In this document: piece by piece, positions 2,794-59,154 of the stretch
Numbering within the stretch: position 1 is the first letter of the stretch
Layout of the letters: each line of letters starts with the position of its first letter
Assembly: GCA_000092065.1 (NCBI GenBank)
Contig: CP000586.1
Direction: 5' to 3' (one strand)
DNA: 64,000 bases
Source: Ostreococcus lucimarinus
Taxonomy: Eukaryota
Made by a program: the position numbers and the translations under genes
The notes under the pieces: generated by a model
Told to the model about the DNA's origin: nothing
The model's database searches: none
Seen by the model: the letters and a program-made list of their open reading frames with translations, nothing else

Positions 2794-3624
2794 CTAAAAT
2801 AATTTGTTCTTGAAGCTCACGAGCGCGCGCCCGATCTGCCCCCAGATGTTGTCTTGCAGAAATACATCAAACTTTTGAAAATCGCCGTTACCGACGTCCA
2901 AATCGGTGTGGAAATCCAACGTGCGAAGCTCGCAGTTCTGAAACTCGTCCCCCGTGAGCGAGTAACACACCCCCCAATGCGCGATGACGGCGATCGATTT
3001 CTCCGGTCTCGCGTCCAACCATCGTCGGAACTCTTGCATTCGTTCCTCGAACACGTCCACGGGCTCGAGCTCAGCCGTCGTGAACGGATCCTTCCCGTCC
3101 GGCGTGTACCACCACGTCGCGTCGTCGTCGCCCATCTCGGTCAAATCCCAATCCGGATGGTCCTCCCCGAGCTCGCGCGCGACTCGCCCGATATCGCTCC
3201 CGTGAAACACCCGCTCGCGCGCCAGCGCGCAGACCACGCGCGGGACGTCCCCGAGCGCGTCTTCGCCCGCGGCGCCGAACGCCAGCTCCGCCGTGCGCAG
3301 CGCTCGCCGCAGCGGACTCGCCACGATCAATTCAGGCGCCGGCTCCAGCGCCGTCGCGATCGTTCGCAGCGCGCGCGCCTGCGCCTCGCCCTCGCTCGTC
3401 AACCGCGTGTCGATCATCATCGGATCCACGAAATCCGGGTCCGCCCAGTGGTTCTCTCTGAGGTAATCATTCATCTCCGTGCGCCCGTGACGCACGAGAT
3501 GGATCGTCTTCGCGTCCCCGCGCGCGGGCGCTTTCGCGGACGCGCGCTTTCGCTTCGCGAAGGTCGACATCGACACGTTCCCGAGCTCGGGCGTGCCGGA
3601 CGCGGCGACGGCGATCCACCGCAT
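2794..3624 (-). CDS. Histidine phosphatase superfamily (phosphoglycerate-mutase-like) protein
   Basis: IHLVRHGRTEMN (RHG catalytic motif) ... IAHWGVCYSL; full ORF with ATG start. Confidence 0.75.
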   Translation of the reverse strand: MRWIAVAASGTPELGNVSMSTFAKRKRASAKAPARGDAKTIHLVRHGRTEMNDYLRENHWADPDFVDPMMIDTRLTSEGEAQARALRTIATALEPAPELIVASPLRRALRTAELAFGAAGEDALGDVPRVVCALARERVFHGSDIGRVARELGEDHPDWDLTEMGDDDATWWYTPDGKDPFTTAELEPVDVFEERMQEFRRWLDARPEKSIAVIAHWGVCYSLTGDEFQNCELRTLDFHTDLDVGNGDFQKFDVFLQDNIWGQIGRALVSFKNKLF

Positions 3625-3724: not shown

Positions 3725-4359
3725 GCGTCGGCCCGCTCGTATCGATACGAGCTGATACCGTATTGGCGTATCGACGTATCAGACTTTTTGTATGGGCAAA
3801 CAGTGTAAAATCGCCGATTTCAATACGTATCGGGAAATTCCCAATACCGGATTCAAGCACCCCGACCGACGCGCGCGATCCGCGATCATCGTAAATCACA
3901 CCATCACTGTTTGCACACATACCGATTGTCCGAATACACCGACACCCCCCCCCCGACGACACCCGTATTCCGACCCCGAAAAAGCGCGGGAAATCGTCAT
4001 CCACCGCGGCGCCGCGTGCGCCACTCGTTCGGCGCTGAGTGACGCTGGCACTCGCGACGCGCGCGACGACCGCACTTTTGCACACACGCCGCGACGCACG
4101 CCATGCGCGCGCACACGACCTCCCGAACGTGCGTGAACGACGCGACGCGCGGACGCGAACGCGGACGCGGACGCGACGCCGCGCGGTGACGCCGCGCGGA
4201 CGCCGCGGATGCGATGGCGATCGAGATATTTTAATCGCGAACGCGCGCGTGACGTCGCGAAGACGCGATCGGGACGCGCGCGCGAGGGCGACGCGCGAAC
4301 GAACGCGGACGACGGCGGCGACGAGGCGACGCGCGAGGACTGGAGACTGACGGAGATTC

Positions 4360-6111
4360 GTGAGGTTTTATCGACGGCGTAGGTCGGTTCGAGCGACGTT
4401 CGCGTCCAAGACGCGCGCGGCGTCGTCGACCAAGCGCGCGACCGCGGTTCGCGCGGCGTCTAAATCCACGATGACCGTGGCGGAGATCGCGAAGAGCGAA
4501 CGACCGATGAAAATTGTTTTCGTGTCCGCGGAATGCGCGCCGTGGTCGAAGACCGGTGGCCTCGGTGACGTCGTGGGATCGTTGCCGGTGGAGCTCGCCA
4601 AGCGCGGGCACAAGGTGATGACGATCTCGCCGCGTTACGATCAGTACAAGGGCGCGTGGGACACCTCCGTGCACGTCGAAGCGCTCGGTAAGTCTGTTGG
4701 CTTCTTCCACGAGAAGAAGAAGGGCGTCGATCGCGTGTTCGTCGATCACCCCGACTTCTTGGCCAAGGTTTGGGGTAAAACCGGCTCCAAGCTTTACGGC
4801 GAAAAGTCTGGGCACGACTTCGCGGACAACCAAGATCGCTTCGCGATGTTCTGCCACGCCGCCATCAAGGCGCCGGCGGCGCTCACCGAACTCGGTTTCG
4901 GCGAAGACGTCGTCTTCGTCGCAAACGACTGGCACTCCGCGCTCGTCCCGGTCATCTTGAACAAGGTGATGAAGCCGGCGGGTCAATTCACCAAGGCCAA
5001 GTGCGCGATGACGATTCACAACATCGCGTTCCAAGGTCGCTTCTTCCCGCAACCGATGGCCACCTACGGCTTGCCGGACTCTGCGGCTGACGACTTCTTC
5101 TTCGAAGACGGTTACTCCAAAGTGTACGACGAAACCAACCCGGCCAAGGAAGACGGCAAGGAGGAATTCGACGGCAAGATTTACCGCAAGGCCAACTGGC
5201 TCAAGGCGGGCTTCATGAACGCCGACAAGAACTTGACCGTGTCCGAAAACTACGCCAAGGAGATCGCATCCAGCAAGGCTAAGGGCGTTGAGCTCGATGA
5301 CGTCATCCGTGAATTCGGTATGGAAGGCATCGTCAACGGCATGGACCCGACCGAGTGGAACCCGTCGAGCGACAAGTTCATCGACGTCCCGTACGACAAG
5401 ACCACCGTCGTCGAAGGTAAGGCTGCCGCCAAGCAAGCGCTCCAAGCTGAAGTTGGCTTGCCGCTCGATGCCGATGCGCCGGTCTTCGGCTACATCGGTC
5501 GCCTCGAAGAGCAAAAGGGCTGTGACATCATGATGGCTGCCATCCCGAAGCTTTTGAAGCAAGTGCCGAACGCGCAAGTCGTCATCTTGGGTACCGGTAA
5601 GAAGAGCATGGAAAAGGCTCTCGAAAAGCTCGACGAAGCCGAACCCATGTGCGCGGGTGTCGTGAAGTTCTCCGCCCCGTTGGCGCACTTCATCACCGCC
5701 GGTGCCGACTTCTTGATGGTTCCGTCCCGCTTCGAACCGTGCGGTTTGATCCAACTCCACGCCATGCAATACGGCACCGTCCCGGTCGTCGCCTCCACCG
5801 GCGGTCTCGTTGACACCGTCAAGGAAGGTGTCACCGGTTACCACATGGGCGCCATGGACGCCGACACCCTCCTCCCGGCGGATGTCGACGCGATGGTTGA
5901 GACGTGCGCCGCCGCCGCCGCCGATTACGGTACTCCGCTCTACACCAAGATGTCCTCCACGTGCATCTCCCAAGACTTGTCTTGGGCTGAGCCGGCGAAG
6001 AAGTGGGAAGGTGTGCTCGAAGAAATGTACTTCGGTACCCCGGAGGCGGTCAAGAAGGCTGAAGTCGTCGTCCCCATCGCCAAGGCCGACGCGATCGCCG
6101 CGACGGCTTAA
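4360..6111 (+). CDS. Granule-bound starch synthase (GBSSI-like, GT5), with R/S/T-rich N-terminal presequence
   Basis: KIVFVSAECAPWSKTGGLGDVVGSLP (KTGGL motif) ... STGGLVDTVKEGVTG; length 583 aa. The track start is GTG. The first in-frame ATG (MTVAEIAK...) is about 37 codons in, so the exact start is uncertain. Confidence 0.85.
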   Translation: MRFYRRRRSVRATFASKTRAASSTKRATAVRAASKSTMTVAEIAKSERPMKIVFVSAECAPWSKTGGLGDVVGSLPVELAKRGHKVMTISPRYDQYKGAWDTSVHVEALGKSVGFFHEKKKGVDRVFVDHPDFLAKVWGKTGSKLYGEKSGHDFADNQDRFAMFCHAAIKAPAALTELGFGEDVVFVANDWHSALVPVILNKVMKPAGQFTKAKCAMTIHNIAFQGRFFPQPMATYGLPDSAADDFFFEDGYSKVYDETNPAKEDGKEEFDGKIYRKANWLKAGFMNADKNLTVSENYAKEIASSKAKGVELDDVIREFGMEGIVNGMDPTEWNPSSDKFIDVPYDKTTVVEGKAAAKQALQAEVGLPLDADAPVFGYIGRLEEQKGCDIMMAAIPKLLKQVPNAQVVILGTGKKSMEKALEKLDEAEPMCAGVVKFSAPLAHFITAGADFLMVPSRFEPCGLIQLHAMQYGTVPVVASTGGLVDTVKEGVTGYHMGAMDADTLLPADVDAMVETCAAAAADYGTPLYTKMSSTCISQDLSWAEPAKKWEGVLEEMYFGTPEAVKKAEVVVPIAKADAIAATA

Positions 6112-7648: not shown

Positions 7649-7791
7649 CTGTTCGCGTCACACATCGCACCACGCGTCAGTCATCGCGTTCGCGCGCTCT
7701 TCGCTCTCTCTCTCGCGCGCGCGTCGTCCGACGAGCCGTTCGCGTCCCGTCGGCTCGCGTCCGCGGTTTGAATTGAATTCCGAATACGTAC

Positions 7792-10583: not shown

Positions 10584-11627
10584 TCACGACGTTGAGTTGC
10601 GAATGTTCGCCAGGACGTTTAGCTTGACGTCTTCGTCGCAAAACGCAAAATCCATCGCGCGAGTCGACATGTCGCGAATTTCGTCATCCGTCAGCCCGAA
10701 CGTTTCCGCCGCGATGGCATACTCGCGCGATAGCGATGTCTGAAAGACCCACGTGTCGTCAGTGCACAAACAAATCGGGTGTCCCGCGCTTCTCAATTTG
10801 GCAAAGTGATGCTCCGCGAAGCCGGCGCACGAACGCGTCTTCACGTTGGACGTCAAACACAGCTCGACAGGAATCTTACTCGCGAGTAAATCTCGAAGCA
10901 AGCTCTCGTCACGAACAGTGTACACGCAGTGCCCTAATCTGTCAGGGCGAAACGCTATGAATGCTCGTTGTTCAGCCTCCGTATTCGCGACTTCGCCGTT
11001 GTGCAAGCTCGTCCCCAATCCATGCGCCCTCGCCTTTTCGAACGCGGCGACGTATCGATCCCAATGCCCGACCACGGGAGAACCGCTCAAATCCACACCG
11101 ACGACGCCTCTCTCTTTATATTTGATCGCCAAATCGATCGTCTCCATCGCCTTGCTCGCGTCGTCGTCTCGCGCGCGGTCCACGCTAAGAATGATCCTCG
11201 CCGCGAGCTCCCCATCCGCGCCGTCTCCACCGCACCGACCGCACGCGTCCTCCAATCCACTCAACACCGCCTCGACGTAGCGCTCCTTCCCGATCTGTTC
11301 CTTCGGCGTCGTGCGTAGCTCCAAGTATCGCGCTCCGTCCCGCGCAAAGTCTTCGCAGACTTCGCGCGTCACCCGTCGCAGCGCCGCCGCGTCGTCGACG
11401 CACGCGTGCACGAGCTTAAAAATCTCAAAGCACGCGAGGAGATCGCGATCGCTCGCGAGCGCGCGCTCGCACTCGCGCTCGAGCCCCCGCGCTGCCGCGA
11501 GTTCCAGTAGAGTGTCCTCGCGCACGCAACCGTTGACGTGCGCGTGCAGCTCGACGCCGCACCTCGCGCGCGCGAACGCCGCGGCGCGGCGCGCCCGCGC
11601 GTCGTTCTTCGCGTCGTCGCTCCGCAT
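10584..11627 (-). CDS. Adenosine/AMP deaminase-like protein (ADAL family metallo-dependent hydrolase)
   Basis: ELHAHVNGCV (HxHxxG), SLHNGE, CLCTDD: adenosine deaminase family motifs; full ORF, ATG start. Confidence 0.8.
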   Translation of the reverse strand: MRSDDAKNDARARRAAAFARARCGVELHAHVNGCVREDTLLELAAARGLERECERALASDRDLLACFEIFKLVHACVDDAAALRRVTREVCEDFARDGARYLELRTTPKEQIGKERYVEAVLSGLEDACGRCGGDGADGELAARIILSVDRARDDDASKAMETIDLAIKYKERGVVGVDLSGSPVVGHWDRYVAAFEKARAHGLGTSLHNGEVANTEAEQRAFIAFRPDRLGHCVYTVRDESLLRDLLASKIPVELCLTSNVKTRSCAGFAEHHFAKLRSAGHPICLCTDDTWVFQTSLSREYAIAAETFGLTDDEIRDMSTRAMDFAFCDEDVKLNVLANIRNSTS

Positions 11628-15505: not shown

Positions 15506-16116
15506 CTGTTTTTCAACCGCGCGTCCATCGCGTTCGTCGTCAGTCGTCGCGTTCGTCTTCGTCGCCCGATGCCGCTAGGGCTTTCTCAATAGGGTCACCG
15601 CCGCTCGCGCGCGCCTCCAGCGCCGCCATCTCGCGCGCGCCATCTCCCACGACGAACGCGCGCGCTCGATCGTAATCCTTCGCGCGATCCAAGCGCGCGC
15701 GCGTCGTCCACCCCCTTTCGCGCGCGCCGAGCCGCCGCATCGTAAAGCCCCGCGTCGTCGCCGTCGATCACCGCGCGTCGCGCCCTCCGCGCGCGTTCGC
15801 GTCGCCGACCGCGCGCGTCGCCGACCGCGCGCGCCACCGCGCGCGACGCGAATCATCGCGCGTCGCGCTCGCGCGCGTCGTCGCGTCGTCTCGCACCTTC
15901 TCGTCGTCGGCGTCGCGTAAAGGCGGACGGCGCGTCGCGCGCCCTCGACGCCTCGAGGCGCGCGCGGTGTGATTTCACTCAAAACGCACGCACATGGGCT
16001 CGATCGACGTACAAAGCGATGCACGAGTCGCATTCAAAGGAGTGAAAACGCTAAGATTTCGAACCTTTGGGTTTCGAACGTTGGCGGTCGTTCGCCGCAC
16101 TGCGCGACGGCGACGG

Positions 16117-22239: not shown

Positions 22240-23346
22240 CTACAGCGCATTATTGCCTTTAAACCTGTTCGAGTACTTCAACATGAAGGATTCGGCGGCG
22301 AGTCGACACCGCATCGGTTCGAGAGCCTTTTGCCCGCGCTCGTCGGCGTTTTTGCGCGTCAAGTACTCTATGACGGCTGGAGTGACTCGTTTTCGAACCC
22401 ACTTCATCACGGGCAGCACGACGTGTTGCTCGGCATCGTACGTGTTGTGCTCACACCCTTCTTGCACGAACAAATTCATGGACGCCGGTCGCGTCGGTTC
22501 GCCCTCGGCTCTGGCCTCGTTCGCCACGCGCATGGCCTCGAGTAAGTTTTGAGAATGCGAAAACGGAATCACGGTGTCTTTGTCTCCGTGCATCACCAGC
22601 ACTGGACATTCCACTTCCGCGAGGTTCTCCCGGTTATTCCACCTATCGGCGAGCAAGTAACTCGCCGTCGCGCCGATGTACCCGCTCGCGACGTCGCGAA
22701 TGGACGTGTACGGGCTCTGGAGCACCAAACCCGCGGGCGGTCCCCCCTGTGCGCACATCATTCGCGTGATCCAACACGCCGGTCCTGTGCCGATGGATCG
22801 ACCCATTATGATCATTCTCGACTGCGAAACGTTGAGATACTTTACGCAATACTTCACCGTAGCCTTGACGACGGCGTTGACGCTCTCCTCGTGCGCGACG
22901 CCTTCGGTGACGCCGTACCCTGGAAACTCCGGCACGATGACGTGTGCCTTCAGCCCGACCGCGATCTTCGTCGCCTCCATCGCGCAATCTCCCACATCGC
23001 ACGCGTTCCCGTGCGCGTACACCACGAAGTACTCTCCCGCGCACCTGTCGTCTCCGTTCGTCGCCCCCTTGGTTCGCATGATTCGCAGCGCGCACGTCGT
23101 CATCCCATCGCTCGTCCGTCCGTCCCCGACCGCGCTCGACCCTCCGCACGACGTGTGCGCCCTTCGTTCGCGAATCTCCAGCGCCACCAGCGTCCGTCTG
23201 TACGTCACGCTCGCGTCGATCGGATCCGCGACGTCGCCCGCGAACGGCGCGCCTCGCCAATCGTACGACGCCGCGCCCCCCTCGAGCGCCCTTCCCGGAA
23301 ACATCACCCATCGCACCGGATCCGCCCGCGCGCGCATCCACGTCAT
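22240..23346 (-). CDS. Alpha/beta-hydrolase, ABHD17/FAM108-like
   Basis: EYFVVYAHGNACDVGD...MIIMGRSIGTG (GxSxG)...VLVMHGDKDTVIPFSHS. Start set at internal ATG (MTWMRARADP...). The in-frame alternative is at 23652 (MARVRAARVDVATDATDATDAT..), which would put a (GTCGCGTCG)n-encoded TDA repeat in the CDS. Confidence 0.65.
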   Translation of the reverse strand: MTWMRARADPVRWVMFPGRALEGGAASYDWRGAPFAGDVADPIDASVTYRRTLVALEIRERRAHTSCGGSSAVGDGRTSDGMTTCALRIMRTKGATNGDDRCAGEYFVVYAHGNACDVGDCAMEATKIAVGLKAHVIVPEFPGYGVTEGVAHEESVNAVVKATVKYCVKYLNVSQSRMIIMGRSIGTGPACWITRMMCAQGGPPAGLVLQSPYTSIRDVASGYIGATASYLLADRWNNRENLAEVECPVLVMHGDKDTVIPFSHSQNLLEAMRVANEARAEGEPTRPASMNLFVQEGCEHNTYDAEQHVVLPVMKWVRKRVTPAVIEYLTRKNADERGQKALEPMRCRLAAESFMLKYSNRFKGNNAL

Positions 23347-23752
23347 CGCCGATCCCGTCGCCGTCGCGATCGGCGCCGTCGCCGTCGCCGCGTCGTCGCC
23401 GCGTCTCGTCTCGCGTCTCGCGCCGTCGCGCGCGTCCCGCGTCGGCGCTCCGCGCGCGCGCGCGCGCCGATCGCGCGCGTCCGCGCCGTCGACGACGGCG
23501 CGCGCGCGCCGACGCGCGTCGTCGTCGTCGGCGCGTTGTCCCGTCGGCGGTCGCGACGCGAGCGCGCGCGCGCGCGTCGTCGCGTCCGTCGCGTCGGTCG
23601 CGTCGGTCGCGTCGGTCGCGACGTCGACGCGCGCCGCTCGAACGCGCGCCATCGCGCGACGACGACGAGACGACGACGACGTCGTCGGACGCCGCGTCGG
23701 CGTGCGACGTCGGCGCGCGCGTCGCGCGCGCGTTCGTCGGTCGGTCGCGCTC

Positions 23753-23788
23753 GCCATCCATCCATCCATCCATCCGACCGACCGACCG
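23753..23788. repeat. (CCAT)5(CCGA)4 compound microsatellite in divergent promoter between ABHD and cold-shock genes
   Basis: ccatccatccatccatccatccgaccgaccgaccga read directly; the same CCGA unit as at 3671-3724. Confidence 0.9.
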
Positions 23789-24182
23789 ATCTCACACAAT
23801 ACCATCTCACAATACGACAAAGCTCACGTACTCTACGCCCACGAATACCAAAGAAGCGACGACGCGCACACGGAAACGCGCGCGGCACAGGACGCGCGCG
23901 CCCGCTCGTCGCGATTGCGCCGCGCGTCGACGCGCCGTCGCGCGCGATGGCGACGCGCGCGCGCGGGAAGGTGCGCGTGCGATGCGGATAAAAATGACGC
24001 GCGTCGTCGTCGACGCGGAGGACGCGGGACGCGCGAGACGACGACGCGAGATGCGCGCGATGGCGCGATTGACGTTGAAGCGCGCGATGGCGGACGCGCG
24101 CGAGGACGGACGACGACGGACGACGATGAGCGGACGCGCGACGGACGCGCGACGGCGAGGGCGGACGATTTGATCGCGCGCG

Positions 24183-24442
24183 CGATGGCGCGTCGTCGCG
24201 TCGCGCGGCGATGGGAGGGGCGGAGGGGAGGGGTCGTCGATTCCGAGAAAGCGAAAGCTGACGCGATCGCGGGCGAACGTCTCGGAGGCGGGACTGACGC
24301 GCCGCTGCGCGCCGCGACTGCGCAGGTGAAGTGGTTCAACGCGACCAAGGGATTCGGGTTCATCATACCGCACGATGGAAGCGAAGAGATATTCGTGCAT
24401 CAAACGGGGATCTCGTGCGCGGGATTCCGGTCGGTGTGGGAG
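24183..24442 (+). CDS. Cold-shock domain protein (Y-box/CSP-like), exon 1 (5' end uncertain)
   Basis: ...QVKWFNATKGFGFIIPHDGSEEIFVHQTGISCAGFRSVWE followed by a GTGAGG donor. This is the first half of a cold-shock domain (compare Chlamydomonas NAB1 VKWFNATKGFGFI). The in-frame upstream ATG at 24183 is used. An ACTGAC...GCGCAG acceptor-like site at 24325 hints at an alternative upstream exon. Confidence 0.6.
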
Positions 24443-24570
24443 GTGAGGCTGGAGCGAAAACACCAACCGGCGCAACCGGCGCGCAGGGGCCCCTGGCGTT
24501 TCGCAATTTCGAAATGGAAATATGAACGGTGATCCCGACTGACGGTGGATGCGTTTACGCGCGCGCGCAG

Positions 24571-25264: not shown

Positions 25265-25341
25265 GTGCGCCGACGCGCTGGGTCTACGACGCCGAAAACG
25301 CGTACAGCGACATCAAACTGACGCGTTCATCGCGGGCGCAG

Positions 25342-29170: not shown

Positions 29171-29459
29171 GACGCGTGCGCGGTCGAACGCGCGCGCTGT
29201 GGGTGTCGGAGTGCGGCGAACGCGCCCAGAGCGGCGCGGTCGGCGGCCATCGACAATCTACGAGCTAATGGTGGTTTACAAGTGCGCAGTGCGCGTGAAC
29301 CCAAAGTTATCTTCGTCCGCTTGAGTTTCGTTCGCGGCTGGGCCGAGCGGATCGTAGGAACCCGTGTTCTTCTCAAACTGGGACGCGAGATTCGGTTAGT
29401 CGTCATCGGAGCGGATTGAAAGTGCCGTTGTTCTTCTCGAACTACGGGCGATCGCGACG

Positions 29460-30401
29460 TCAGTCGTGTCGTAAAACGCGCACGTCCGCATACGATCGCG
29501 CGCGCGTCACGAGACGTACCTGCGTTGCGATTCCTGGGTTTCTGCGAAGCGTCCAGCACGGATCCCCTCCAAACGTTTGCCGCAAGTCCTCGAGAAGCAT
29601 CTCGATGTCCATAAACAGCAACGACGGAAAGTCACTGAGCATCAGATCTATTCTACAGTCTTTCGGCATCGCCTTTCGCAGCGCGGAGACGGCGATGGCC
29701 GCCCTGGAGTACGCTCGATCCTCGAGACACAGCGCCGGCCGCCCTCGGAGCAGTTTGACGATGTCCGCGTCCGGCATGAGCGCTCGTAAACCCGTCACAC
29801 GCTCCAAGATCCCGTCCAACTCTTCCTGCGACGCGAGCAAACACGACGGAATCGTCGCGAACAACCCATCGGCGTCGCACGCGTCTCCTAATCGCTCCCT
29901 CGTCGACGCCGCGCGTTCCCGCACCCCCTCGAGCGCTTCCTCTCGAAGACGCAGCAATCTCGGCTCGCGCGCGCACACGTCTCCCGCGTCCACGTCCGCG
30001 CTCGCGAAAGTATTTTTAATCGCCAACATGGCCGCCATCGTCTCCCTCAGATCCACCGCGAGCTCCGCCGCGAGCGCTCGCTTCACCTCGCCTCTCGCCA
30101 CTCTTTCGCCGAGCCCCGGGCACAGCGCGAACAACCGATCGACGTCGCGCGCCAGCGCGTCCGCGTCCACGCCCCGCGCGTCCGCGACGACGTCCGCGGC
30201 CAATCGCCCGAGCGCGTCGTCCGCGCGTCCCTCCAGGATGTGTTTCACCTTCACCGTTCGCCCGAGCAGGTTCAGCGCCGGCCGCGTCGGCGTCGCGCGC
30301 GCGTCGTCCTCCGCCGCGCGTCTCGCGCCGCGCGCGCGTCGCGATGCGCGCGTCGCGAAACGCGCGTCGCGCGGCGCCGCGCGCGCCGTCGCGCGCGACA
30401 T
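29460..30401 (-). CDS. Hypothetical protein (conserved-looking, R/A/S/T-rich N-terminal presequence); function unknown
   Basis: Non-low-complexity body (..VKVKHILEGRADDALGRLAADVV...IDLMLSDFPSLLFMDIEMLLEDLRQTFGGDPCW...) with GC3-biased codons. The internal ATG is chosen so that it does not overlap the divergent HAD gene. Confidence 0.45.
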   Translation of the reverse strand: MSRATARAAPRDARFATRASRRARGARRAAEDDARATPTRPALNLLGRTVKVKHILEGRADDALGRLAADVVADARGVDADALARDVDRLFALCPGLGERVARGEVKRALAAELAVDLRETMAAMLAIKNTFASADVDAGDVCAREPRLLRLREEALEGVRERAASTRERLGDACDADGLFATIPSCLLASQEELDGILERVTGLRALMPDADIVKLLRGRPALCLEDRAYSRAAIAVSALRKAMPKDCRIDLMLSDFPSLLFMDIEMLLEDLRQTFGGDPCWTLRRNPGIATQVRLVTRARSYADVRVLRHD

Positions 30402-41857: not shown

Positions 41858-42037
41858 GTGAGCGCGCGAGCGAACGATGCGCGACGCGCGCGCGATACCG
41901 TCGCGAGGGGGTCGAACGAGGGCGATGCCCAGTGCGCGTGTGCGCGAATTTCATCGCGTGCGCGCGCGCGATGACGGTGCGAACGCGACGCGAACGCGAG
42001 ACTGATGACGGCGTTGATGGTTTCGCGCGCTACGTAG

Positions 42038-53872: not shown

Positions 53873-55402
53873 CTAACGAGAGCGAATGGAAAGAATTGCT
53901 TTGGAAAGTTGCGGTATCGGCGTTTCCCTCGACTTTTTTGGAGAAGTTGAGGGTTCGTAGATATCCGCTAATGGTACACGCGTGGGCTGGTTCTCGATCG
54001 TATCGCGAATGATGGCGACGTAGCGATACATGCGATGACTGTCGAGTCGTTCAACGCGCTCCTCTGGAGAGTACTGACGAAGCGCCCAGAGGCGTTCGAA
54101 AATCGTCGGCCCTATTCGCTGCGTCGCGGTTTCGTTTTGATCTTCAAAAACCCCGGGCGATGCCGAGCTGGCATCGAATTCTTCTTGAATCGACAAGAAA
54201 GACTCTTTCGATTCGGTTGCGGCGATTAAGTCCTTCACCTCCGCTTCGAGTTCAATTTCGTTCGTTGGCATGCTAAACGCCGCAAGGAAAGACGTCCTCG
54301 CCCGCTTCGCAGCCGTGATAGGCTTGGAAAGCCCCTTGGCCACGCCTTTGGCGACGTTCGAGACTTGCCTCGTAACCTGACTCGCCTCCATCGTCGACAT
54401 CGTCGTGGTGTTCATCACGCTTTCAATCGACACACGCTGGCGCCATAGAATTCCAGCTGCACCCCACTCGCGCGGTAAGTCCGCAAACACCCCGGGTCGA
54501 TCGTTGTCGAGAACCAAGCCTTCGCCGACGTGGCAATATGGTCTGCGAACCAACGGACGCGACATCGGCAGCAAAGGGATGATGTCATCCTTTTGTACGA
54601 CGCGCAAGATATCAATTTCCTCGATAGCTTGCGCGGTCTCCTTCGGTCCGAGTTTTGGTGAGCCAAACGTGACGACGCGACGAATCTTCGTCTTCTTCTT
54701 TTGATGCAGCAACAAAGCGAGCGCGACCGCTGCGGCGCCTCCGAGCGAGTGGCCCGTGAGTTGAAGCTCGTAGCCATCCAATAGCAAAGGCTCGATCGCC
54801 TCCAAGCATCGTTGCGCAATGTTTCGGTACCCTCTGTGCATCGGCACCGGCACATCTTCCGCTCTTCCAGTCGGCGCCGTGCCCAATCGCAAGTTTTGCG
54901 CCACATTCTTGATATTCTTTGTTCCGCGAAGCGACACGGTGTGCGTACGGTTTCTATGATCCGTCGTCACGATGGCTCTCTGCTCGCACGAACTCAACTC
55001 TAACACGCGCACGTCCTCTTTACCCCTGAAAAACTCTTCAATCTCCTCTAATGGTTGCCCATTCAAGCAAGCGATCTGCGCTATTCTGTACAACTCCTCG
55101 AACGACCCCACGACTGGTATCACGCTTCCGGGTGACGTCCCCGGCGGCATCTGTATCTGCTTCAACCAACTCGGCGCGAAGCGCATCGCCTCCACCGCTC
55201 GATTTCTCAGCTCCCCCAACCGTCGCTGCGATACCCCGTTCACAGCGTCCACGTCAACGCTCGCCTCCGCGTCACTCTCAGTCGTCGCTCGCGCCGTCGA
55301 CGACGGCCGGCCGAAACGCGCTCTTCTCGCATCTTGCGCGCGTATCCCGCGTTCAATCGCCTGTTCATCCGTCGACCGCGTCGCGTCGTCAGTCATAATC
55401 AT
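53873..55402 (-). CDS. Class 3 (fungal-type) lipase / alpha-beta hydrolase
   Basis: LTGHSLGGAAAVALALLL (GHSLGG nucleophile elbow); the internal ATG (MIMTDD) is used because the track start is GTG. Confidence 0.75.
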   Translation of the reverse strand: MIMTDDATRSTDEQAIERGIRAQDARRARFGRPSSTARATTESDAEASVDVDAVNGVSQRRLGELRNRAVEAMRFAPSWLKQIQMPPGTSPGSVIPVVGSFEELYRIAQIACLNGQPLEEIEEFFRGKEDVRVLELSSCEQRAIVTTDHRNRTHTVSLRGTKNIKNVAQNLRLGTAPTGRAEDVPVPMHRGYRNIAQRCLEAIEPLLLDGYELQLTGHSLGGAAAVALALLLHQKKKTKIRRVVTFGSPKLGPKETAQAIEEIDILRVVQKDDIIPLLPMSRPLVRRPYCHVGEGLVLDNDRPGVFADLPREWGAAGILWRQRVSIESVMNTTTMSTMEASQVTRQVSNVAKGVAKGLSKPITAAKRARTSFLAAFSMPTNEIELEAEVKDLIAATESKESFLSIQEEFDASSASPGVFEDQNETATQRIGPTIFERLWALRQYSPEERVERLDSHRMYRYVAIIRDTIENQPTRVPLADIYEPSTSPKKSRETPIPQLSKAILSIRSR

Positions 55403-55769
55403 CGCCGTCGTCGTGGACGGCGGATGCCGCGGTCCATCGCGCGTCGCCGACACCGCGCGCGCGAGAACACGCGACGATCAGACGTCATCGTGGCTCCAGC
55501 ACTCGACACGTTTTCGTTCGGTTCGTCGCGCGCACGTCGTGCGAACGCACCGTGAACCGAGAAACGAGCGCGCGCGTCGTCGGCGCGTGCATGGCTCGCG
55601 CCGTCGCGAGCCGCCGCCGCGCACCGCGTCTGTGTCTGAAGCTCTCGCGCGGCGGCGGTTGTGTATTCAGGAAACGAATGAAACTCGCGCGGCGTTGCAA
55701 TTGAAAAGTGCGTAAAACAAGGGCGAAAATGTGCGTAAAGCGCTAACTCGCGCGCTGACTCGTGATCGA

Positions 55770-58916: not shown

Positions 58917-59154
58917 GTGCGCGCGACGCGGGATGACGGGGAGGGGAGGTGGACGCGACGGGCGGGGGGGGGGACGCGCGGCGCGGACGGAGGGGGGGAC
59001 GCGAGCGACGCGAGCGATGACATCGAAATCGAAACGGCACGATTTTTTTTGAAATGTCGCGGCGCGCGGCGCGACGGGTCGGTCGGACGCGTTCGGCGCG
59101 CGCGCGACGATCGGGGGAGGGTGGACTGACGTGTATTCGTTCGACGCGGCGCAG

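Follow-up and report, generated by a model that had tools for sequence, protein, structure and literature searches.

The window analysed here is a stretch of 64,000 nucleotides of the Ostreococcus lucimarinus genome (contig CP000586.1). It carries genes for a cold-shock-domain (CSD) protein, a phytanoyl-CoA dioxygenase family (PhyH) protein, Rad21/Scc1, a VAMP7-type R-SNARE, a Ycf45/SpoIIIAA-like ATPase, a starch synthase (Glyco_transf_5), a Lipase_3 protein and RPL17 (Ribosomal_L22 family), as well as an uncharacterised gene, g29464. Ten introns, one of them a putative 5'UTR intron, were catalogued in these genes. The spliced CSD, PhyH, VAMP7 and g29464 models are identical to proteins of strain CCE9901, which identifies the window as nuclear DNA of that strain. 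Comparison of EukProt indices 2903-3158 with the numbers of genes per chromosome given by Lanier et al. (2008) makes chromosome 6, and not the atypical chromosome 2, its probable location.

The CSD gene and its introns

The focal feature is intron 2 of the CSD gene (24443-24570, + strand; 128 nt, phase 0), which opens with the donor GTGAGG and closes with the acceptor GCGCAG, its end reading GCGCGCGCAG. The junction left by its removal falls between ...FRSVWE and GEEVEY..., and the spliced CSD protein aligns to homologues over this junction without a gap. P0303, a 145-aa ORF among the MMETSP transcripts of a close strain, is likewise contiguous across it. Inside the intron, the element GACTGACG (24537-24544, +; cccGACTGACGg within) matches the published extended motif and puts the presumed branch A at 24542, 28 nt from the last intron base. 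The orthologous intron in the related genome L038 has the donor GTGCGTG, a GACTGAC element and, again, the acceptor GCGCAG.

Intron 1 (23971-24325, +; 355 nt) is preceded by a very short exon (23947-23970, +), ATGGCGACGCGCGCGCGCGGGAAG, which encodes MATRARGK and runs into the donor GTGCGCGTG. The intron begins with GTGCGCG, contains GACTGACG at 24292-24299 and ends in GCGCAG. Removal of 23971-24325 joins MATRARGK to VKWFN and produces an N-terminus of the ...RARGKVKWFN kind, as in homologues and in the NCBI protein; the resulting two-intron model of 106 aa is identical to XP_001418260.1. Of two related genomes examined, one (L038) conserves the intron, which there measures 394 nt, follows the exon MGTRSSGK, extends from the donor GTGCGCA to the acceptor TTCTAG and carries gagACTGACga 31 nt from its end. 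Judged by the NCBI model and by this conservation, CSD intron 1 is real. Scans of metagenome contigs with 24-mers spanning the spliced CSD junctions (exon 1-2 and exon 2-3) gave 0 matches for each.

The MMETSP ORF begins inside intron 1, which would reflect either retention of the intron or an alternative/internal start. The last 140 nt of the intron (24186-24325, +) constitute a frame that is open into exon 2 (MARRRVARRWEGRRG...AQ/VKWFN), and P0303 uses this frame while intron 2 is spliced out. Such a structure suggests that retention of intron 1, or internal transcription start, gives rise to an N-terminally extended isoform.

On the metagenome scaffold L009 (5499-5819 and 6052-6372), two tandem CSD copies without any intron share about 74% identity with the window protein. 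The GC content of this scaffold is 55%, GACTGAYG is absent from its 12 kb, and the neighbouring genes are epimerase, DegT and GT90 sugar-modification genes. L009 may be a region of the small outlier chromosome of Ostreococcus, or its CSD copies may be retrocopies. We considered the 74% homologues (P0001-P0004) as intron-free orthologues and rejected them: since L009, the scaffold of P0002, is not syntenic with the window and holds two tandem intronless copies, it offers a paralogous context and not a case of orthologous intron loss. One might also imagine that intron 1 is retained or bypassed to give a MARRRVARR... protein beside the MATRARGK form, and that the L009 copies are retrocopies of spliced mRNA. 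We hold this combined scenario to be rather unlikely; if true, it would make the L009 copies direct evidence for reverse-transcription-mediated gene copying in Ostreococcus. Among viral contigs (IMG/VR) there was no close relative, only relatives at 35-43%.

The surroundings of the gene deserve two further remarks. In a second related genome (L040), the upstream neighbour of the CSD-PhyH pair is not the one seen in the window: at a distance of about 500 bp stands a 757-aa MULE-transposase ORF (235-2508, - strand), a lineage-specific insertion or rearrangement. In the window itself, the divergent intergenic region between the gene at 22240-23820 (-) and the CSD gene contains runs of (CCAT)x4 and (CGAC)x3-4 (23760-23790, +).

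Other introns of the window and their splicing

Downstream of the CSD gene, the PhyH intron (25265-25341, +; 77 nt) has the donor GTGCGC, aACTGACg at 25317 and the acceptor GCGCAG. The spliced model of 277 aa, starting with MVTDEV, is identical to XP_001418261.1; a model of 297 aa from the first ATG was discarded, being absent from the protein collection in which the 277-aa form is present. The PhyH junction aligns with distant homologues, and in close relatives one finds at this place either an in-frame read-through insertion or an ORF comprising exon 2 only. We found no transcript contig for this intron. In L038 (1750-2676; P0333, P0338 and P0340), the PhyH intron has a length divisible by 3 and lacks a stop, and gene callers read through it. 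Database proteins consequently carry a spurious insertion of about 26 aa, whose 'VTD' residues are the translated branch element GTGACTGAC.

The Rad21/Scc1 intron (7649-7791, -; 143 nt, phase 1) displays the donor GTACGT, GACTGACG at 7682-7675 and the acceptor GAACAG. The exact spliced protein (498 aa) is encoded on 85 contigs, all of them no longer than 4.4 kb, and the unspliced ORF of 461 aa occurs on contigs of up to 108 kb. Contigs L010-L013 align to the window with precisely 7791-7649 missing. In the VAMP7-type R-SNARE gene, the intron (41858-42037, +; 180 nt, phase 0) is delimited by GTGAGC and ACGTAG and contains GACTGATG at 42000-42007. The spliced VAMP7 is identical (100%, full length) to a protein predicted for O. 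lucimarinus CCE9901, and six transcript-like contigs (L003-L008) lack precisely 41858-42037. The intron of the Ycf45/SpoIIIAA-like ATPase gene (58917-59154, +; 238 nt, phase 1) runs from GTGCGC to GCGCAG, with GACTGACG at 59124-59131. Its exact spliced protein (476 aa, start MGRGMTTT) is present on 13 contigs of at most 3.3 kb, and contigs L014-L018 are devoid of precisely 58917-59154. The alternative starts MTTMGRG and MTTTSTTT were absent from the protein collection that contains the MGRGMTTT form.

Inspection of ACTGAC sites led us to four more introns. In the starch synthase gene, the intron (4129-4382, +; 254 nt) follows a first exon of 9 codons and has the donor GTGCGTG, GACTGACG at 4345-4352 and the acceptor GCGTAG; two contigs (L011 and L012) carry the exact spliced junction ...CCCGAAC/GTCGGTTCG... 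The Lipase_3 intron (55361-55550, -; 190 nt; GTGCGT, GACTGACG, GAACAG) comes after a first exon of 14 codons (MHAPTTRALVSRFT). The exact spliced Lipase_3 protein of 509 aa is present in Logan, and contig L019 lacks precisely 55361-55550. In this part of the window (55361-55592, -), the NCBI protein XP_001418515.1 (Lipase_3, 507 aa) begins with MTDDATRSTDEQ, which corresponds to the ATG of 'ATGACTGAC' within the intron. The annotated N-terminus is thus probably derived from the intron, the real start being MHAPTTRALVSRFT in the upstream 14-codon exon.

The third additional intron (29442-29519, -; 78 nt) is located near the 3' end of g29464 and is defined by GTACGT, GACTGACG and CCGTAG; the spliced model of this gene, located at 29.4 kb, measures 306 aa and is identical to NCBI XP_001418507.1, a match to annotation, and no transcript contig was found for the intron. 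The last is the putative 5'UTR intron of RPL17 (15506-15896, -; 391 nt), with GTGCGAG, GACTGACG at 15545-15538 and AAACAG, whose acceptor directly abuts the ATG (aaaaacag/ATGGTGAAG). All ten contigs retrieved for RPL17 are long and genomic, nearly identical to the window except for one SNP and an indel in a CG repeat. On the strength of the sequence, we consider this 5'UTR intron likely. Consecutive ORFs on the + strand at 47.9-50.0 kb, which we also examined as a possible split gene, were rejected, as Pfam assigns them to separate and complete DUF924 and Fer2 genes.

When the spliced proteins were looked up, Logan, JGI and ENA yielded short contigs. These transcript-like contigs are 96.4-100% identical to the window for kilobases, except that the predicted segment is missing to the base, and in this manner five introns are exactly absent: those of Rad21, VAMP7, Ycf45, starch synthase and lipase. 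For the PhyH, g29464, CSD intron 1 and RPL17 5'UTR introns, the basis is annotation, homology or sequence. About 21 kb of the window (3.9-9.2, 38.4-44.8 and 52.7-62.3 kb) is represented in transcript-like contigs, with only five discontinuities, all of them with the motif.

We infer that the short contigs represent spliced RNA, given that the spliced Rad21 ORF occurs on short contigs only and the unspliced one on contigs of up to 108 kb. Another reading would be that the contigs lacking these segments are genomic DNA from strains that have lost the introns. The sample type (DNA or RNA) of the Logan, JGI and ENA sequences is indeed unstated, and some of the contigs in question span several genes on both strands. 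Intron loss would nevertheless have to explain how five different introns were removed to the base at GT...AG with flanks 96.4-100% identical, and why contigs with spliced Rad21 all stay within 5 kb (94 index blocks) when unspliced ones attain 108 kb. Besides, long genomic contigs (L001, L020-L029) match the window gaplessly over the intron regions that they cover, and the MMETSP ORF, which shows the CSD junction, comes from a transcriptome. We therefore regard intron loss as very improbable and treat the short contigs as spliced RNA. As to genomic sequence, a 33.7-kb Logan contig is 100% identical to the window over the 20,076 bases compared. Three transcript-like contigs, namely L003 (38388-44704), L010 (4707-9204) and L019 (52741-58228), each take in three or four adjacent genes from both strands, from which it follows that transcripts overlap or abut in this very compact genome; this is also the reason for the merging of genes in RNA assemblies.

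An earlier note, made from the sequence alone, had inferred five complete introns (Rad21, CSD intron 2, PhyH, VAMP7 and Ycf45) and a possible extra CSD site at 24290-24325. All six proved to be real GT-AG spliceosomal introns on the combined testimony of transcript-like contigs, the MMETSP ORF, NCBI models and homologue alignments; their coordinates, donors, acceptors and motifs had been read correctly, and the extra site forms the 3' part of an intron, 23971-24325, that is annotated and conserved in L038. The note had also held that each intron rescues a conserved protein, and this was borne out: excision restores the frame or deletes an in-frame stop, as the lengths of 143, 128, 77 and 238 nt are not divisible by 3 and the 180-nt VAMP7 intron has an in-frame TGA. 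Conserved ORFs are restored with gapless CSD and PhyH junctions, and spliced models equal database proteins exactly.

The branch-point signal

All ten introns begin with GT and end with AG, as expected of U2-type GT-AG introns. Their donors fall into three types, GTGCG (six introns), GTGAG (two) and GTACG (two); the complete GTGCGTG donor occurs in the starch synthase intron only. This distribution is compatible with a GTGCGTG consensus, ten introns being too few for a logo. Lengths vary between 77 and 391 nt with a mean of 203 nt (n=10), and nine of the ten introns are found either in the 5'UTR or no more than ~50 codons into the coding sequence. Several follow first exons of just 8-14 codons, which gene finders easily miss.

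Every one of the ten introns contains exactly one ACTGAY, followed by G, although four of them were discovered by inspecting ACTGAC sites, so that this figure of ten out of ten is ascertainment-biased, the published 87% being the unbiased estimate. The hexamer is ACTGAC in nine introns and ACTGAT in the VAMP7 intron alone. G also precedes it in nine cases, and the complete GACTGACG is present in eight. From the presumed branch A to the last intron base there are 18-34 nt in all ten introns. From the branch element to the acceptor, pyrimidines make up a fraction of only 0.30-0.57, which means that there is no pyrimidine tract, and in nine of the ten introns the acceptor is the first AG 3' of the branch element. 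From the motif and its position, the A of ACTGAC would be the branch nucleotide.

These observations agree well with the earlier note, which had described an ACTGAC element (once with a final T) close to the acceptor of each of its six introns, where the branch A now proves to lie 20-32 nt from the last intron base, and had called the consensus unusually strong; the published analysis of the same species concurs (PMC2483917). Its proposal that GCGCAG forms part of the shared signal fared less well. The ending does occur in three of its five full introns, or four when the extra CSD site is added. Among all ten introns, it is found in four, and the introns are 62-73% GC and rich in CGCG runs; GCGCAG is thus the ending of a minority and probably reflects composition, not a signal. 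Likewise, the search pattern proposed there recovered seven of the ten introns when run on the window, at the cost of one false positive, and missed the 355-nt intron, the 78-nt intron and the one with the ACTGAT variant. The false positive, an ACTGAC at 10763 (-), was rejected since it lies inside a continuous ORF ('ICLCTDD...'). The 8-mer GACTGAYG is a sharper handle, with nine of its ten matches being intronic.

Could the presence of ACTGAC be a coincidence, due to chance or to the composition of a GC-rich genome, with no role in splicing? Over the window as a whole the hexamer is not enriched (19 observed against 22.05 +/- 5.23 in shuffles), nor is the loose regular expression GT[GA][CA]G...ACTGAY...YAG (13 against 10.8 +/- 3.4), and both results speak for such a coincidence. 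The non-randomness is positional relative to introns, not global. Nine of the 19 ACTGAC sites and nine of the ten GACTGAYG sites are intronic, even though introns account for about 2.0 kb of the 128 kb of strand-space, i.e., ~1.6%. Furthermore, in each intron the element occurs just once, within a zone of 17 nt that precedes the acceptor. With an ACTGAY frequency of ~2.5e-4 per position, simple arithmetic puts the chance of finding it in this zone of all five introns defined by transcript contigs at ~1e-12. Taken together with the persistence of the motif in VAMP7 orthologues and its presence in 87% of EST-confirmed introns genome-wide (PMC2483917), this leaves coincidence with next to no credibility.

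Conservation in related genomes points in the same direction. In three Ostreococcus-like genomes, the VAMP7 intron measures 226, 232 and 206 nt, as against 180 nt in the window, and all three of these diverged introns keep ACTGAC 25-31 nt from the acceptor. L038 retains ACTGAC in both CSD introns and in the PhyH intron. L040 has ACTGAT in CSD intron 2, and gCTGAT and gCTGAC in CSD intron 1 and the PhyH intron, respectively. The orthologues of the VAMP7 intron and of CSD intron 2 maintain ACTGAY at the same distance. Judging from these sequences, the CTGAY core is the most conserved part of the element, and only this core is strict across species.

The same orthologues bear on the idea that the shared motif reflects common descent from a mobile family of repeated introns, like the introner elements of Micromonas, and not selection on a splicing signal. 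Related Mamiellales do have introner families, and the GC-rich introns of the window, with their CGCG/GACG low-complexity runs, give short mutual matches in blastn. An all-against-all blastn of the ten introns, however, showed that they share only splice signals and low-complexity runs: the best match extends over 69 nt at 81%, and there is no collinear similarity. A common mobile origin is also hard to reconcile with lengths of 77-391 nt, or with VAMP7 orthologues of 180-232 nt that nonetheless keep the motif. The VAMP7 intron and CSD intron 2 occupy the same gene position in related genomes, and CSD intron 1 and the PhyH intron are conserved in L038; these introns are therefore old and not recent insertions. 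We accordingly give very little credence to an introner origin.

A subtler possibility is that ACTGAC is a conserved intronic signal of another kind, e.g., a splicing-factor site, and that the lariat forms at a different adenosine nearby. CTGAC- or TGAC-like sequences do occur nearer to the acceptor, such as tgtgacgcg in the Rad21 intron and ctCTGACgc in CSD intron 2 of L040. On the other hand, ACTGAC differs by one base from UACUAAC and fits CTRAY, its distance to the acceptor is typical of branch points, and Irimia and Roy treat the hexamer as the branch point across 50 species (PMC2483917). We think it quite improbable that the lariat forms elsewhere.

What remains as by far the most probable interpretation, and one that we hold with high confidence, is that these are the normal cis-signals of U2-type introns of O. 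lucimarinus outside chromosome 2, with a near-invariant branch box. This signal set consists of a GT[G/A][C/A]G donor, most commonly GTGCG, and a near-invariant (G)ACUGAY(G) in which the penultimate A is the presumed branch nucleotide; it includes no pyrimidine tract, and a downstream YAG serves as the 3' splice site. U2 snRNA carries a conserved GUAGUA box, and the branch box is recognised by SF1/BBP. ACUGAC may be viewed as a yeast-type UACUAAC box (CTRAY) with a single A-to-G change that puts G before the branch A. It would pair with GUAGUA of U2 snRNA through A-U, C-G, U-A, G.U, a bulged A and C-G, and SF1/BBP would read it as well. A scan of the window with Rfam detected neither U2 snRNA nor any other Rfam family. 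If no pyrimidine tract is there to recruit U2AF, the branch site would carry most of the 3' definition, and the motif may be near-invariant for the very reason that recognition leans on it. A strict branch site without a pyrimidine tract is a pattern typical of intron-poor genomes.

Comparison with known systems

The interpretation of the earlier note is thus supported, and the signal that it described is not new, having already been published for O. lucimarinus. Described in 2008, the ACTGAC signal is already in use to illustrate how intron-poor genomes converge on a strict structure of the 3' part of the intron, and our analysis brings little new to the field in this respect. Its value is rather practical: GACTGAYG 18-34 nt before YAG can be relied upon when gene models of O. 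lucimarinus are to be corrected. In the window, it exposes a lipase start codon inside an intron, missed first exons of 8-14 codons and a likely 5'UTR intron of RPL17. The case also shows that real splice signals can be recovered by a reader who has nothing but the raw sequence.

Among other organisms, a close parallel is offered by hemiascomycete yeasts (S. cerevisiae, Candida, Kluyveromyces; UACUAAC), which similarly combine a near-invariant branch box with an intron-poor genome and introns clustered at the 5' end; in yeasts, 94-100% of the introns contain ACTAAC (Table 2, PMC2483917). The two boxes differ in that O. lucimarinus has G instead of A before the branch A, which would form a G.U wobble with U2, and in that the base 5' of ACTGAC is G, where yeast has T. 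The genome of O. lucimarinus, with ~61% GC and the intron composition given above, also differs from that of yeast. ACTGAC is the commonest branch hexamer in Aspergillus fumigatus and Ustilago maydis, too (Table 2, PMC2483917). In these fungi, which have a CTRAC/CTGAC motif, it is present in only about 11% of introns, compared with about 87% in O. lucimarinus.

Introns of chromosome 2 of Ostreococcus (the 'big outlier') belong to the same genome and are served by the same spliceosome, but are 40-65 bp long and have no branch or splice consensus; the introns of the window, at 77-391 nt and all with the motif, do not conform to this short class. Micromonas, another picoalga of the Mamiellales, has introner elements that likewise possess recognisable branch points. 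These form repeated families with high identity between copies, whereas the introns of the window have only splice signals and low-complexity sequence in common, and high identity among many copies was not seen among the ten.

The introns of the window correspond, finally, to those described by Irimia and Roy (2008, PLoS Genet 4:e1000148, PMC2483917) in their section "The Peculiar Case of Ostreococcus". For EST-confirmed introns of O. lucimarinus outside chromosome 2, these authors reported ACTGAC in 87.15% and GACTGACG in 66.5%, along with an atypical 5' consensus, GTGCGTG, and weak signals on chromosome 2. Species, hexamer, extended GACTGACG and GTGCG-type donor are the same, and the lengths are similar, with a mean of 203 nt here and an average intron of 188 bp in Lanier et al. 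(2008). The introns of the window show every testable feature of this strong-consensus class, from which nothing substantive sets them apart. To that published description, the window adds individual examples, confirmation by transcript contigs, conservation of the motif across species and details of annotation.
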